Shown: piece by piece, positions 3,223 to 46,857 of the stretch | Layout of the letters: each line of letters opens with the position of its first letter | Numbering within the stretch: the stretch's first letter is position 1 | Source of the DNA: Octopus sinensis | Taxonomy: Eukaryota | NCBI RefSeq assembly: GCF_006345805.1 | Contig: NC_043003.1 | Location: 86,490,001-86,554,000 of the forward strand | Reading direction: 5' to 3' | DNA length: 64,000 bases | Notes under the pieces: generated by a model | What the model saw: the letters and a program-made list of their open reading frames with translations, nothing else | Databases searched by the model: none | What the model was told of the DNA's origin: nothing | Made by a program: the position numbers and the translations under genes

Positions 3223-3418
3223 GAGGGTTGCTGAAAAGTTCCTGGCTTTAACGATATCAGGAAAGGCTTGGCAAGAGGCCCAAAGATCCAAGTTCTTTTA
3301 CAGACTGGAAAAACTGAAGGACCACTGAAAAAAGTGTGAGAACCTGAAAGGGGAATAAGTTGAATAAGTTGAACTGTATTTTCTTTTACCCAATCCTGGA
3401 GCTTTTCAATACCCCTCG
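3222..3418. mobile_element. Mariner-type MITE
   Basis: TA-flanked imperfect TIRs CGAGGGTTGCTGAAAAGTTCCTGG / CTGGAGCTTTTCAATACCCCTCG; related copy at 39541-39753. Confidence 0.7.
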
Positions 3419-5454: not shown

Positions 5455-6165
5455 CTCAAGGCCCTGAAAAGTTTAATGGTGACAACAAGTCGATTATATC
5501 GATCACCTCCCCCTCAGTGTTTCACTAGTATTTAATATATCGACTCCTAAAGTATAAAAGGTACAGTCGACATCAGCGGAAATTGAACTCAGAACATTAA
5601 AGGCGGATGAAATGCCTATTTCTTTACTACCTACAAGGGGCTAAACACAGAGAAGACAAACAAGGACAGACTAACGGATTAAGTCGATTATATCGACCCC
5701 AGTGCGTAACTGGTACTTATTTAATCGACCTCTAAAGGATGAAAGGCAAAGTCGACCTCGGCGGAATTTGAACACAGAACGTAGCGGCAGACGAAATTTC
5801 TTTACTACCCACATGGGGCTAAACACAGAAGGGGACAAACAAGGACAGACAATATATCGACTCCTAAAATATAAAAGGTAAAGTCGACATCAGCGGAAAT
5901 TGAACTCAGAACATTAAAGGCGGATGAAATGCCTATTTCTTTACTACCCACAAGGGGCTAAACACAGAGAGAACAAACAAGGACAGACTAACGGATTAAG
6001 TCGATTACATCGACCCCAGTGCGTAACTGGTACTTAATTTATCGACCCCGAAAGGATGAAAGGCAAAGTCGACCTCGGCGGAATTTGAACTCAGAACGTA
6101 ACGGCAGACGAAATACCGCAAAGCACTTCGCCCAGCGTGCTAAAGATTCTCCAAGCGACCGCCTT
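5455..6165 (-). mobile_element. tRNA-derived SINE (Meta/MESC-like central domain), multimeric
   Basis: Head GGCGG..CT.G.AGAA..TTAGCACGC, B-box GAGTTCAAATTCC, domain GTCGACTTTGCCTTTCATCCTTTCGGGGTCGATAAA; about 4 body units, including a local duplication (5535-5680 ~ 5851-6000). Confidence 0.8.
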
Positions 6166-6166
6166 A

Positions 6167-6204
<38 letters not shown>

Positions 6205-6300
6205 TTAGAGACAAAACCACTATTATGCAAATCAAACAAAGAAAGACTTAATCCAATACATAAAAATTTTTTTTATATAAATTAAATAAAATTAAATTCG

Positions 6301-6346
6301 CCACTACAATTGTTTCGTGTCTCTTCTAAGGACATTCATCAGGTGG
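6301..6346 (-). ncRNA. Minimal type I hammerhead ribozyme (mirror copy)
   Basis: Exact reverse complement of 6394-6439. Confidence 0.75.
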
Positions 6347-6393
6347 TTTTCAGATCTTCTATTCAATTTAAAATTGAATAGAAGATCTGAAAA

Positions 6394-6439
6394 CCACCTG
6401 ATGAATGTCCTTAGAAGAGACACGAAACAATTGTAGTGG
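6394..6439 (+). ncRNA. Minimal type I hammerhead ribozyme
   Basis: CCAC-CTGATGA-aTGTC-cttagaaga-GACAc-GAAA-CAATTG-TA-GTGG: stem I CCAC/GTGG, palindromic stem III CAATTG, GUA cleavage triplet. Confidence 0.75.
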
Positions 6440-6620
6440 CGAATTTAATTTTATTTAATTTATATAAAAAATTTTTATGTATTGGATTAAGTCTTTCTTT
6501 GTTTGATTTGCATAATAGTGGTTTTGTCTCTAATTAATATATAATATTTTACTATAAAATTGGATTCAATCCTAAATCTGATTTTTCCCTGTAAATTTGG
6601 ATTTATTCCCTAATATTATC

Positions 6621-17579: not shown

Positions 17580-17829
17580 TAATTAATCAATATAGGGTGG
17601 CAAAAAAAAATTTTGTAGAATTTTTTTGCCACCAGCGGCCTAGTGCGAAAAAATTAAATATCTGACCTAAGATTTTCAAATCATCGCACTCGCGCCAAAT
17701 TTATCGGCAGCAAATGGAATCGGCGGCTTATAAATTTGGCGCGAGTGCGATGATTTGAAAATTTTAGGTCAGATATTGCCGAGGCAGGGATTGAAGTTCC
17801 TCGTGAAAATATCTGTTCCGATCTGGCTG

Positions 17830-17934
17830 TTTCTTACTGACGAATCTATCGGCCTATGGAAGATTGGCTTGATTTAATTTAATCAGGTTAGTTTACCATT
17901 AAACAATAGATGAAACGGTGCATCGTATAAGAAA
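17830..17934 (+). ncRNA. Type I hammerhead ribozyme with extended stem II (copy 1)
   Basis: TTTCTTA-CTGACGA-ATCTAT..56 nt..ATAGAT-GAAA-CGGTGCATCG-TA-TAAGAAA; predicted cleavage after GUA at 17927. Confidence 0.88.
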
Positions 17935-18319
17935 TTACAGGGTAAATGTTTTTTTAATTTTCTCCTGGTTTGCGGAATTAATGTTATTTTGCGGTTGAAG
18001 CTTTGGCTGTTATTTCTAGTGTGTGAATGGCCTATTATGGCCGTTCCTTGATTGTGATGTTGAACTTATAAATGGTCTATGACTATTTAATTTTTTCCCA
18101 CTAGGCCGCTGGTGGCAAAAAAATTCTACAAAATTTTTCTTGCCACCCTATATTGATTAATTATGAATTTTCTGGTTAATTCCGTAATGGAATCGGCGGC
18201 TTATATTTATTTGCTGCCGATAAATTTGGCGCGAGTGCGATGATTTGAAAATTTTAGGTCAGATATTGCCGAGGCAGGGATTGAAGTGCCTCGTGAAAAT
18301 ATCTGTTCCGATCTGGCTG

Positions 18320-18424
18320 TTTCTTACTGACGAATCTATCGGCCTATGGAAGATTGGCTTGATTTAATTTAATCAGGTTAGTTTACCATTAAACAATAGA
18401 TGAAACGGTGCATCGTATAAGAAA
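18320..18424 (+). ncRNA. Type I hammerhead ribozyme (copy 2)
   Basis: Identical to copy 1; cleavage after 18417. Confidence 0.88.
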
Positions 18425-18810
18425 TTACAGGGTAAATGTTTTTTTAATTTTCTCCTGGTTTGCGGAATTAATGTTATTTTGCGGTTGAAGCTTTGGCTGT
18501 TATTTCTAGTGGGTGAATGGCCTATTATGGCCGTTCCTTGATTGTGATGTTGAACTTATAAATGGTCTATGACTATTTAATTTTTTCCCACTAGGCCGCT
18601 GGTGGCAAAAAAATTCTACAAAATTTTTTTTTGCCACCCTATATTGATTAATTATGAATTTTCTGGTTAATTCCGTAATGGAATCGGCGGCTTATATTTA
18701 TTTGCTGCCGATAAATTTGGCGCGAGTGCGATGATTTGAAAATTTTAGGTCAGATATTGCCGAGGCAGGGATTGAAGTGCCTCGTGAAAATATCTGTTCC
18801 GATCTGGCTG

Positions 18811-18915
18811 TTTCTTACTGACGAATCTATCGGCCTATGGAAGATTGGCTTGATTTAATTTAATCAGGTTAGTTTACCATTAAACAATAGATGAAACGGT
18901 GCATCGTATAAGAAA
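18811..18915 (+). ncRNA. Type I hammerhead ribozyme (copy 3)
   Basis: Identical to copy 1; cleavage after 18908. Confidence 0.88.
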
Positions 18916-19300
18916 TTACAGGGTAAATGTTTTTTTAATTTTCTCCTGGTTTGCGGAATTAATGTTATTTTGCGGTTGAAGCTTTGGCTGTTATTTCTAG
19001 TGGGTGAATGGCCTATTATGGCCGTTCCTTGATTGTGATGTTGAACTTATAAATGGTCTATGACTATTTAATTTTTTCCCACTAGGCCGCTGGTGGCAAA
19101 AAAATTCTACAAAATTTTTTTTGCCACCCTATATTGATTAATTATGAATTTTCTGGTTAATTCCGTAATGGAATCGGCGGCTTATATTTATTTGCTGCCG
19201 ATAAATTTGTCGCGAGTGCGATGATTTGAAAATTTTAGGTCAGATATTGCCGAGGCAGGGATTGAAGTTCCTCGTGAAAACATCTGTTCCGATCTGGCTG

Positions 19301-19405
19301 TTTCTTACTGACGAATCTATCGGCCTATGGAAGATTGGCTTGATTTAATTTAATCAGGTTAGTTTACCATTAAACAATAGATGAAACGGTGCATCGTATA
19401 AGAAA
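19301..19405 (+). ncRNA. Type I hammerhead ribozyme (copy 4)
   Basis: Identical to copy 1; cleavage after 19398. Confidence 0.88.
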
Positions 19406-19550
19406 TTACAGGGTAAATGTTTTTTTAATTTTCTCCTGGTTTGCGGAATTAATGTTATTTTGCGGTTGAAGCTTTGGCTGTTATTTCTAGTGGGTGAATG
19501 GCCTATTATGGCCGTTCCTTGATTGTGATGATATATATATATATATATAT

Positions 19551-25785: not shown

Positions 25786-26704
25786 CGATGCAACTTGCTC
25801 TTTAATAACATTTTAAATGTTGAGAAATACGTTTCTATAAGACAGTCTGTCTAAAATATATAATTCTTGTATACTCAAATATTTATAACCACTTTTTTGC
25901 AAATTACCACAGCTTTTCCATGGCTCTTATTGCACGCTTCTCTCATACCAACTTTCAAGCTAACTATAGCGCATTCTGAGATGTCACACTTTATTAATAT
26001 GAACAGTTCCAAGAATTTTATTATCAGTATGTAACTTTGTCTTCTAATGTTCTTTGACGAAGCATTTTCTGCAGTATCAAACATTTCCGTACATTTCATT
26101 AACCATGAATGTGCTTCCGTATCAAAAGGCACGTTTAGAAATATTTCATGACATACACTGATTGGTGTTTCGTTTCTTACAGCTTTACCAACCGCTAGGT
26201 AAACCCTTTTATTTTTTTCATAAGAACATTTCCGGCTTCCATTTTGTTCCTTATACAATAAATTACTCAGCAAGAGGTGCTGATACAATTTCACAGTAAA
26301 TATTCCAAAACAATTTAAATACGTTGTTAGATGATTATTCCTACCTATGTTTCTTTGGGTTTATCTTTCGTATAAAGAGTTGTTCTCCTTCCAACTATCT
26401 CTTCGGTTACTCTTCCATTCGAAAGGCACTCATCAAAACGTTGTCTCATGTAAAATGGAGAAGATTTTAAATGAGAAATCCCAGATCAAATCAAGTGCAG
26501 CTGCTTTCCAACTAAACATTTTTTCGCTTAACAATATCTCTCGTCAATTTTACTTTACTTCCTTTGGAAATATTATTTCCAGTTTCTTCTTTACTTCTTT
26601 GAATCATATTCTTCAATATTTAAGAGATGAGGAATTATGTACATCATTTATATTATTTACATTATTATATTTGACGGATATTTGTCCTCATCTTGTTTCT
26701 GATT

Positions 26705-26749
26705 AACACAACGTTTCGGCTGATATACCCCCAGCCTTCATCAGGTGTC
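26705..26749 (-). ncRNA. Minimal type I hammerhead ribozyme
   Basis: GACAC-CTGATGA-A-GGCTG-ggggtatat-CAGCC-GAAA-CG-TT-GTGTT; palindromic AACGTT allows a dimeric stem III. Confidence 0.7.
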
Positions 26750-26797
26750 TTGGGGAAATTTTGAACCTGGGTTCTGATTCCAAAGGTACTTTTGTTG

Positions 26798-26864
<67 letters not shown>

Positions 26865-26941
26865 GGTATCGAACTCGGAATCTTGAGGTTAGTAGCCCGC
26901 TACTAACCCCAAGATTCTGAGTTCGATTCCTGGCAGTGACC

Positions 26942-26999
<58 letters not shown>

Positions 27000-27001
<2 letters not shown>

Positions 27002-28106
27002 GTGATACAAATAGCGGCAAAACACGAGCAAAACAAAAAACTGTTCTCAGTATTTAAGGAAGCTGACAAATACAAACAAGAAATCATACTACCTAACAAA
27101 TATGAAGAAGAAGAAGAAGAAGAAGAAGAAGAAGAAGAAGAAGAAGAGAAGAAGAAGAAGAAGAAGAAGAAGAAGAAGAAGAAGAAGAAGAAGAAGAAGA
27201 AGAAGAAACAACAAAAGCTATAAAACAAATAAAATCCAAACTAAAACTAGAACAGCAACGGACCATAATAAAACGATGGCAAGAAAAGCCCCTTCATGGC
27301 AAATACTGGACTAAAATAAATGCAAGACGAATAGACAAAGAAAAAACCCAGCAACGGTTGAGAAGCTCAGGACTCAAATCAGAGACAGAGGGATTTTTAA
27401 TTGCAGCACAAGACCAAAGCCTCCCCACCAGAAATTACCAAAAACATATAATGAAAAGTAACTGCAGAATATGTGGAGATGGACAAGAAACAATAAATCA
27501 TATTATCTCTGGCTGCCCAGTCCTAGTTAAGAAGGAATATATTCACAGACACGACAGAGTTGGGACCTACATACGCTGGAAGCTATGCCAACATTATGGA
27601 ATAACAACAGAAAAAAGATGATATAGGCACACACCAGAAAAGGTCACAGAAAACGAGAAAGCAACCATACTCTGGGATATGCCAATACACACAGATATAG
27701 GCCACATATAGTTCATGAAGATCATGAAGAAAAAATACTTTCTAATTGATGTATGAATACCAGCAGATGACAACGTTCTCTAAAAGAAATGGAGAAACTT
27801 TCAAAATACAAGGACCTAGAAATAGAGATAACTCGAATGTGGAATCTAAAACCAGAAACAATTCCTATCATAGTAGGTGCATTAGGTATGATAAAAAATA
27901 TTCAGACAAATACATAGCAAAAACACCGGGACTTACATATATATATAACATACAAAACATTGCACTACTTGGCACTGCACACATCCTACGCAGAACACTT
28001 TCAATACAATAACCATCAGAGCATCACAACAAACCACAGCACATACCCAAGGCACACAGAGCTGCGCTCGGTAGTGAAGTGAAAGCTCTCTATGAAAATA
28101 AAATTA

Positions 28107-28110
<4 letters not shown>
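27000..28110 (+). mobile_element. R4/Dong-clade LINE 3' fragment (zinc knuckle + RLE endonuclease)
   Basis: LKSETEGFLIAAQDQSL, CRICG..ETINHIISGC (CCHC), RHDRV, ILWD, KYKDL, ALLGTAHILR; ends in (AAT)n. Confidence 0.85.
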
Positions 28111-28189
<79 letters not shown>

Positions 28190-28291
28190 TAATAATAACA
28201 ATAATAATAATAATAATAACAACAACAACAACAACAACAACGACATCAAATATAACTTTGGAATGAGAACCAACGTTAAAAATTTCCCCAA

Positions 28292-28337
28292 GACACCTGA
28301 TGAAGGCTAGAGGGTATATCAGCCGAAACTTTGTGTT
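28292..28337 (+). ncRNA. Minimal hammerhead (slightly decayed copy)
   Basis: GACAC-CTGATGA-A-GGCTA...CAGCC-GAAA-CT-TT-GTGTT. Confidence 0.55.
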
Positions 28338-28449
28338 AACAGCAAACAAGATGAAGACAAATATCCATCAAATATAAATAGTGTAAATAATGTGCATACT
28401 TTGAACCATTTCAAAAAATCTCTCAAGATATCATAAAATGTAATTCACA

Positions 28450-46249: not shown

Positions 46250-46857
46250 TGTTTCTTATATCATTATTGCCCACAAGGGGCTAAACATAGAGGGGACAAA
46301 CAAGGACAGACAAACGGATTAAGTCGATTACATCGACCCCAGTGCGTAACTGATACTTAATCTATCGACCCCGAAAGGATGAAAGGAAAATTCGACCTCA
46401 GCGGAATTTGAACTCTGAACGTAACGGCAGACGAAATACCTATTTCTTTACTGCCCACAAGGGGCTACACACAGAGGGGACAAACAAGGACAGACAAACA
46501 GATTAAGTCGATTATATCGACACCAGTGCGTAACTGGTACTTATTTAATCGACCCCGAAAGGATGAGAGGCAAAGTCGACCTCGGCAGAATTTGAACTGA
46601 GGACATAACGGCAGACGAAATACCTATTTTTTTACTACCCACAAGGGCCTAAACTCAGAGACGACAAACAAGGACAGACAAATGGATTAAGTCGATTATA
46701 TTGACCCCAGTGCGTAACCGGTACTTATTTAATCGACCCCGAAAGGATGAAAGGCAAAGTCGACCTCGGTGGAATTTGAACTCACAACGTAACGGCAGAC
46801 GAAATACCACTAAGCATTTCGCCCGGCGTGCTGACGTTTCTGCCAGCTCGACGCCTT
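46250..46857 (-). mobile_element. Meta-like SINE: one head plus three tandem bodies
   Basis: Units of ~183 bp joined at GAAATA-CC-TATTT (46433-46445, 46617-46629). Confidence 0.85.

Follow-up and report, generated by a model that had tools for sequence, protein, structure and literature searches.

The closest relatives of the structure described here are Penelope-like elements (PLEs) such as PAc of Anolis carolinensis (PMC11167929) and Pen2a_Av (PMC3846280), in which a single ORF of ~840 aa encodes a reverse transcriptase (RT) with a C-terminal GIY-YIG endonuclease, a pseudo-LTR (pLTR) overlaps the start of the ORF and a hammerhead motif lies at the start codon. Copies of these elements have two 3' ends ~30 nt apart and an inverted 5' copy flanked by a target duplication. 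The octopus family shares all of these features with PAc and Pen2a_Av, whereas its pLTR differs in having a tRNA-derived head with A and B boxes followed by an (AAT)n tract; the promoters of PAc and Pen2a_Av are given as TATA/Inr-like or are left unspecified, and no tRNA head appears, in the available portions of the two papers (PMC11167929, PMC3846280). The minimal hammerheads of PLEs (PMC4209133) are described as having a short helix I, a long helix II, an unpaired base preceding stem II and no stable helix III, their palindromic core being predicted to act as a dimer. The octopus motif has the same traits and no substantial difference from that description, as far as the excerpted text goes, its cleavage in octopus being a prediction.

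Partly similar elements are known from three other settings. The schistosome elements Sm-alpha and Sj-alpha (PMC6765202, PMC2770079) likewise join a tRNA-derived, Pol III-type head to a hammerhead and occur in thousands of copies, but they are described as non-coding, tandem SINE-like elements with canonical hammerheads, whereas in octopus the unit forms a coding element's terminal repeat. The TRIMp3 elements Cassandra, Helenus and Ajax (PMC10886601) also have a small-RNA-gene promoter inside a terminal repeat, for which an origin by SINE insertion has been proposed; they are non-autonomous LTR elements, whereas the octopus element is a PLE whose ancestral ORF is intact. Animal non-LTR retrozymes (bioRxiv 10.64898/2026.07.22.740005) are non-coding, hammerhead-bearing, pLTR-related derivatives, and short tandems are found in octopus as well; retrozymes form head-to-tail arrays, in contrast to the octopus copies, which are mostly single or head-to-head and are tRNA-headed. 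A tRNA-headed pLTR is not mentioned in the accessible parts of PMC8557442, PMC4209133 and PMC13282606, and no autonomous PLE with a tRNA head was found in a literature search that had most subscription papers and Repbase outside its range. We consider it moderately probable that the locus analyzed here is an inverted pair of truncated Penelope/Poseidon-type pLTRs, in which the tRNA-derived A/B-box head likely acts as the Pol III promoter of short RNAs as well as of ORF-bearing ones.

Structure of the inverted locus

The window is a stretch of 64,000 nt of Octopus sinensis (contig NC_043003.1, 86,490,001 to 86,554,000), and all coordinates refer to its first letter. Alignment to the family reference placed a left arm in inverted orientation at 26612-26899 (minus strand) and a right arm in direct orientation at 26899-26999 and 28110-28398 (plus strand). 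The whole structure is enclosed by a pair of sequences resembling target-site duplications, 14-15 nt long (26597-26611 and 28399-28412, plus strand), which differ by one substitution and one indel and whose score was matched in <1% of control pairs. The 60-bp central palindrome claimed in the preliminary description was confirmed at 26868-26927 as two 29-nt arms around CC, complementary at 27 of 29 positions, and represents the inversion junction within the head. Both arms also proved to have the identical outward order claimed for them, namely anticodon loop and B box, (AAT)n tract and a segment of ~150 nt that is ~90% alike between the two. On the minus strand, the left arm consists of the 3' half of the tRNA-like head (26864-26899; anticodon loop, B box at 26865, then an 11-nt deletion), an (AAT)n/(AAC)n tract (26792-26863) and a 3' segment that extends into a long "tail", as assigned from the end classes of the family. 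On the plus strand, the right arm consists of the 3' half of the head (26899-26942; B box at 26919-26930), a first part of the (AAT)n tract (26943-26999), a second (AAT)n/(AAC)n part (28110-28249) and a 3' segment (28250-28398) with a short 3' end lacking the tail, which contains the ORF start ATG at 28263 and a hammerhead at 28292-28337. The A-box half of the head is missing from the locus, as noted before. The long tail on the left and the short end on the right fit the two-3'-end pattern of the family, and the locus is a single head-to-head (inverted) insertion of two truncated pLTRs of an abundant coding PLE.

The proposed splitting of the right (AAT)n tract by a LINE fragment was confirmed at 27000-28109 (plus strand). 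The insert is the 5'-truncated and broken 3' end of a LINE of the restriction-endonuclease type; among its coding features are a CCHC zinc finger (zf-RVT, E 4e-5, under the Pfam cut-off) and a broken restriction-like endonuclease motif, it shows a weak R2 match (E 0.02), and it is putatively R4/Dong-like. This insertion would be a later event than the inverted PLE insertion. The 3' end of the same insert occupies the family's AAT tract in at least five further loci (L012, L067, L138, L159 and L165), and the tract acts as an insertion hot spot. A (GAA)35 expansion is located at 27104-27207 inside the LINE reading frame, with a short form at L199. The 3' end of a second repeat was observed to recur before the AAT tract of the PLE at L006, L011, L024, L093 and L169.

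A minimal hammerhead had been claimed for each arm, and the motif is present in both. The type I motif of the left arm (26705-26749, minus strand), whose sequence overlaps codons at the N-terminal end of the PLE ORF, is intact and has a complete core composed of stem I (GACAC/GTGTT), CUGAUGA, an extra A, stem II, GAAAC-GUU and the palindromic AACGTT, with a predicted cut between 26710 and 26709 on the minus strand. The motif of the right arm is mutated, with a G to T change in stem III (28330) and a mismatch in stem II. Rfam detected a hammerhead in neither arm, and no tRNA; ARAGORN called no tRNA, a relaxed run giving one spurious minus-strand match. The hammerhead and tRNA labels were therefore assigned by inspecting the motifs and by comparison with the tRNAs of the genome. 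In dimer folding, the active conformation was not the minimum-energy structure, a result that has no bearing either way. In 82 of 86 copies the 3' end falls at one of two sites located 50-95 nt downstream of the predicted cut, and only 2 of 86 end near it. The ribozyme was therefore ruled out as the 3' terminator, and the description of the element as ribozyme-terminated fails. The hammerhead would cleave only as a dimer or with protein assistance and would not be the maker of the 3' end; that of the anole element is reported to be dispensable for insertion (PMC11167929).

Other repeats were observed elsewhere in the window. At 6200-6540, a near-perfect palindrome of ~340 bp resembles the young inverted end of another PLE family; its arms hold a minimal hammerhead distinct from the one described above (CUGAUGA ... 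GAAAC, CAATTG palindrome). A 490-bp unit is present in 3.7 tandem copies, 99% identical, at 17730-19530, and a further common interspersed repeat occurs as partial copies in tandem at 5534-6114 and 46257-46808 (periods 317 and 184).

The repeated unit and its Penelope-like element

Copy numbers in the 2.72-Gb genome were taken as exact matches to 19-20-mers, which amounted to 74 for the ORF start, 1,053 for the post-stop spacer, 3,369 for the A box, 5,275 for the anticodon and 7,936 for the hammerhead; reversed control 19-mers of the head and the hammerhead had no exact match in the genome. Only 4 of the 22 head-anchored copies with a hammerhead core retained the exact 19-mer, suggesting that the true copy number of the family is probably a few tens of thousands. 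The copies differ by about 5-9% from their majority sequence, and the family looks dead in this genome. Among the first 30 head matches, 25 are followed in the same orientation by the post-AAT segment, which in 22 of them includes the hammerhead core, while the remaining five adjoin an inverted partner or upstream element sequence, and a free head without PLE sequence was seen in none. Head and hammerhead are one unit, linked in 30 of 30 heads; the independent occurrence that the preliminary description had named as refuting its reading was not found, and chance co-insertion into AAT tracts was ruled out by this linkage.

The autonomous PLE for which the preliminary description had proposed a search was found, and the hammerhead segment encodes the N-terminus of its RT and GIY-YIG ORF. 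Several heads are preceded by a common coding sequence, and at one locus (L109) an open RT+GIY-YIG frame of 551 aa lies immediately upstream of the stop region, head, AAT tract and hammerhead. This frame had no Pfam family match of its own; it has 1,659 homologs (E<=1e-20) with RVT_1, some also with GIY-YIG, and its family names were taken from homologs 42-68% identical to it. At L179 and L189 the upstream hammerhead segment continues directly into the ORF, and at these two loci and L338 the pLTR forms a partial tandem overlapping the ORF N-terminus. One homolog (P0004) starts with the same hammerhead-encoded peptide, and the majority sequence of the fetched copies has an open frame of 838 codons beginning just past the AAT tract. 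The head begins ~30 nt downstream of the stop codon of the RT+GIY-YIG ORF, and all 30 post-stop-anchored copies run on into head sequence, two of them with internal deletions. This ORF anatomy, together with the continuity from stop codon to head, identifies the head, AAT tract and hammerhead as the pLTR, the order in the family being stop codon, ~30 nt, head, (AAT)n, ATG, hammerhead and ORF.

By every feature tested, the family is a Penelope-like element. Those of EN+ PLEs were all found, namely an ORF with RT and C-terminal GIY-YIG, an overlapping pLTR, a hammerhead motif, the optional tail of 30-40 nt and an inverted copy with a duplication, and both a PLE as the mobilizer and the PLE-typical inversion, as proposed at the outset, were borne out. 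In contrast to a second family in the genome, no zinc-finger linker was seen by inspection between RT and EN in the frame, and the clade, placed in the same way, is putatively of the Penelope/Poseidon type. The second PLE family (L026, L244-L273), putatively Neptune-like, has a cysteine-rich linker between RT and endonuclease and ends at (TA)n, and the tRNA head was not seen in it. A PLE RT fragment beside L026 was rejected as the partner of the head, since it belongs to a different family.

The 3' ends of the copies fall at two sites ~30 nt apart (47 and 35 of 86), in agreement with the anole element, which has two internal starts of reverse transcription and a "tail" (PMC11167929). An inverted piece is present in 42 of 80 loci, and flanking duplications were found at 18 of 37 inverted complexes (two being simple-repeat artefacts) versus 3.5% of control pairs; among direct short copies, target duplications were found in 4 of 20, several of them misclassified. 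Most copies are single or inverted rather than arranged in head-to-tail arrays as retrozymes are, and mini-tandems were seen only among the ORF-start pieces, many of which are of this form. At L385-L394 (C24, C27), L353 and L363, the PLE is represented by mini-tandem derivatives with internal deletions and recurring junctions (+282 to -113, +284 to -12, +291 to -28 and +329 to -51), which suggests that the deleted forms were themselves amplified in a retrozyme-like manner or were locally duplicated.

The tRNA-like head and the origin of the RNA

Full copies carry both boxes of the head, a point raised for checking by the preliminary description, with the A box 44 nt before the B box. The two boxes are canonical and have tRNA spacing, whereas the cloverleaf stems are broken, and neither Rfam nor ARAGORN calls the head of the family a tRNA. 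Compared with only 27 genomic tRNA sequences (6 amino acids), the head came closest to Arg-TCT, with which it has 50 positions in common (z about 7); Ala and Cys tRNAs scored almost as high. A two-codon upstream ORF sits in the A box. As judged from its sequence, the head is likely a decayed tRNA and a likely Pol III promoter, possibly for the whole coding element.

The 5' ends of the copies were then mapped relative to the tRNA +1 position. Of 80 hammerhead-anchored loci, taken in genome order (C1), 11 continue into the ORF and 35 end within 40 nt around +1, the others ending inside the head (6), in the AAT tract (22) or later (6); the 22 apparent starts in the AAT tract are at least partly due to splitting by later insertions. 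Thirty-five of the 46 loci that reach the first 40 nt of the head stop there. Twenty of 30 A-box copies start <=9 nt from +1 and 10 extend upstream, compared with a loss of ~4% expected across that interval from the loss rate of 30 spacer-anchored copies, the ends of which are scattered along 1.5 kb. The step at the head is unmatched elsewhere in 2.5 kb, and the exact counts stand at 3,369 for the A box but at 1,053 for sequence ~35 nt upstream. In the ORF-start set (all 74 exact matches, 70 loci fetched), eight pieces extend back through the AAT tract into the head, and six of these begin at the head (L338, L346, L347, L389, L393 and L394), three of them reaching 500-800+ nt into the ORF. The other two continue into upstream endonuclease sequence; together with the 10 A-box copies that run upstream of the head, they indicate that longer templates exist. 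Contigs spanning the ORF end and the head occur in runs of three organisms, and contig depth, which is not equal to copy number, rises about 2.5-3.6-fold at the head in four of four runs; such contigs carry no information on starts or ends. RNase P cleavage is an unlikely source of the 5' ends, as the acceptor stem is broken and the ends lie anywhere from 0 to 7 nt upstream of +1.

The shortest signals at which mammalian Pol III terminates are TTTT and TVTTT (PMC8466645). The sense strand of the ORF contains no TTTT run, versus 2.9 in codon shuffles (P 0.03), and a single TTTT or TVTTT versus 5.6 (P 0.008), while the second PLE family has 7 TTTT in 1,765 nt; the deficit is modest, is one among several tests and has a single control family, from another clade. 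A headless Poseidon family was sought as a control, and all 30 loci recovered were of the same tRNA-headed family. Eighteen of 65 ORF-start pieces end at +232 to +246, beside the sole sense-strand TCTTT, most often a few nucleotides short of it; a protein footprint would also account for these ends.

From the sequence evidence, a captured Pol III promoter likely starts both the short and the ORF-bearing RNAs. The RNA would start at the head, the Pol III promoter marking its 5' end, and the PLE protein would start reverse transcription at one of two internal sites, about 130 and 155 nt inside the ORF, in keeping with measurements on the anole element. SINE-like copies of ~290 nt would result from priming at the 5' copy of the start site or from a short RNA template, and ORF-bearing copies from priming at the second copy of the start site; fold-back or strand switching would generate head-to-head pairs, and the palindrome at the 5' end may help the fold-back. 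A more specific version, which we put forward tentatively and regard as possible, is that the whole ~2.9-kb coding RNA is made by Pol III from the captured tRNA promoter, with the ORF purged of TTTT and a leaky TCTTT at ~+240 splitting the output into short SINE-like and full-length RNAs, so that a single unit would comprise both the coding element and its "SINE". An obstacle to the Pol III reading is that translation would have to start from a Pol III transcript without a cap.

Capped RNA is more easily translated, and this counts in favor of an alternative with the same PLE anatomy, in which Pol III makes only short pLTR RNAs and the ORF mRNA is a Pol II product, from its own promoter or by host read-through of tandem copies. 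Such a division would agree with the ~100-fold excess of short over ORF-start copies by exact counts, with the upstream extension past the head that two of the eight head-reaching ORF-start pieces and a third of the 30 A-box copies show, and with the pieces ending near TCTTT, as a short terminated RNA would. We consider it unlikely, however, because 6 of the 8 head-reaching ORF-start pieces begin at the head, including the three that run 500-800+ nt into the ORF, and the TTTT deficit spans the whole ORF.

The pile-up of 5' ends coincides with a GCCC-AC-GGGC palindrome, and rotifer Penelope pLTRs, which lack a tRNA head, are described as having discrete 5' ends at palindromes, with TATA/Inr-like motifs (PMC3846280). 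A stop or self-priming site could hence mimic the same picture, the tRNA-like segment being a passenger and the pile-up arising from an RT stop or self-priming at the palindrome, or from a chance Pol II start. Many short fold-back junctions (L062, L075 and L333) agree with this explanation. It nevertheless appears slightly less probable still than a Pol II mRNA, in that a hairpin of 5 bp is weak, the two boxes have been retained, as has the distance between them, while the tRNA stems are broken, the TTTT deficit is left over and a comparable step is found nowhere else in 2.5 kb. Fold-backs of 20-40 nt centered on the palindrome just upstream of the head were observed at L062, L075, L083 and L333, consistent with self-priming of cDNA ends.

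The heads of 107 short and 73 ORF-linked copies vary at the same sites and are equally divergent (5.3% vs 5.5%), and after correction for 257 tests no position differed significantly except possibly the 5'-most (fold-back) site, suggesting that the short copies are products of PLE masters and not of a separate lineage. A tRNA SINE lineage with its own masters, using the 3' end of the PLE, is very improbable and largely refuted: two thirds of the heads start at the first bases of the tRNA with no ORF upstream, and schistosome tRNA-headed hammerhead SINEs provide a precedent (PMC6765202, PMC2770079), but the head belongs to ORF-bearing copies in 30 of 30 cases and short and ORF-linked heads have their variable sites and divergence in common. 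The non-autonomous lineage distinct from its partner that defines a tRNA SINE was not found, and the earlier proposal of a separate SINE with a borrowed PLE tail was not borne out, as the unit is the autonomous PLE's own pLTR.

Significance for Penelope-like elements

If the head does serve as a Pol III promoter for both kinds of RNA, the family would represent a protein-coding animal retrotransposon that uses a SINE-type promoter, and it would raise the question of how an uncapped Pol III RNA is translated. It would also suggest how elements combining a tRNA head with a hammerhead, Sm-alpha among them, could evolve from the end of a PLE. Further, the 5' end of a PLE RNA would be precisely marked, which would make it possible to test how pLTRs form, how inversion comes about and what the hammerhead contributes. 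Thousands of copies that annotation would call SINEs are the ends of one PLE family.
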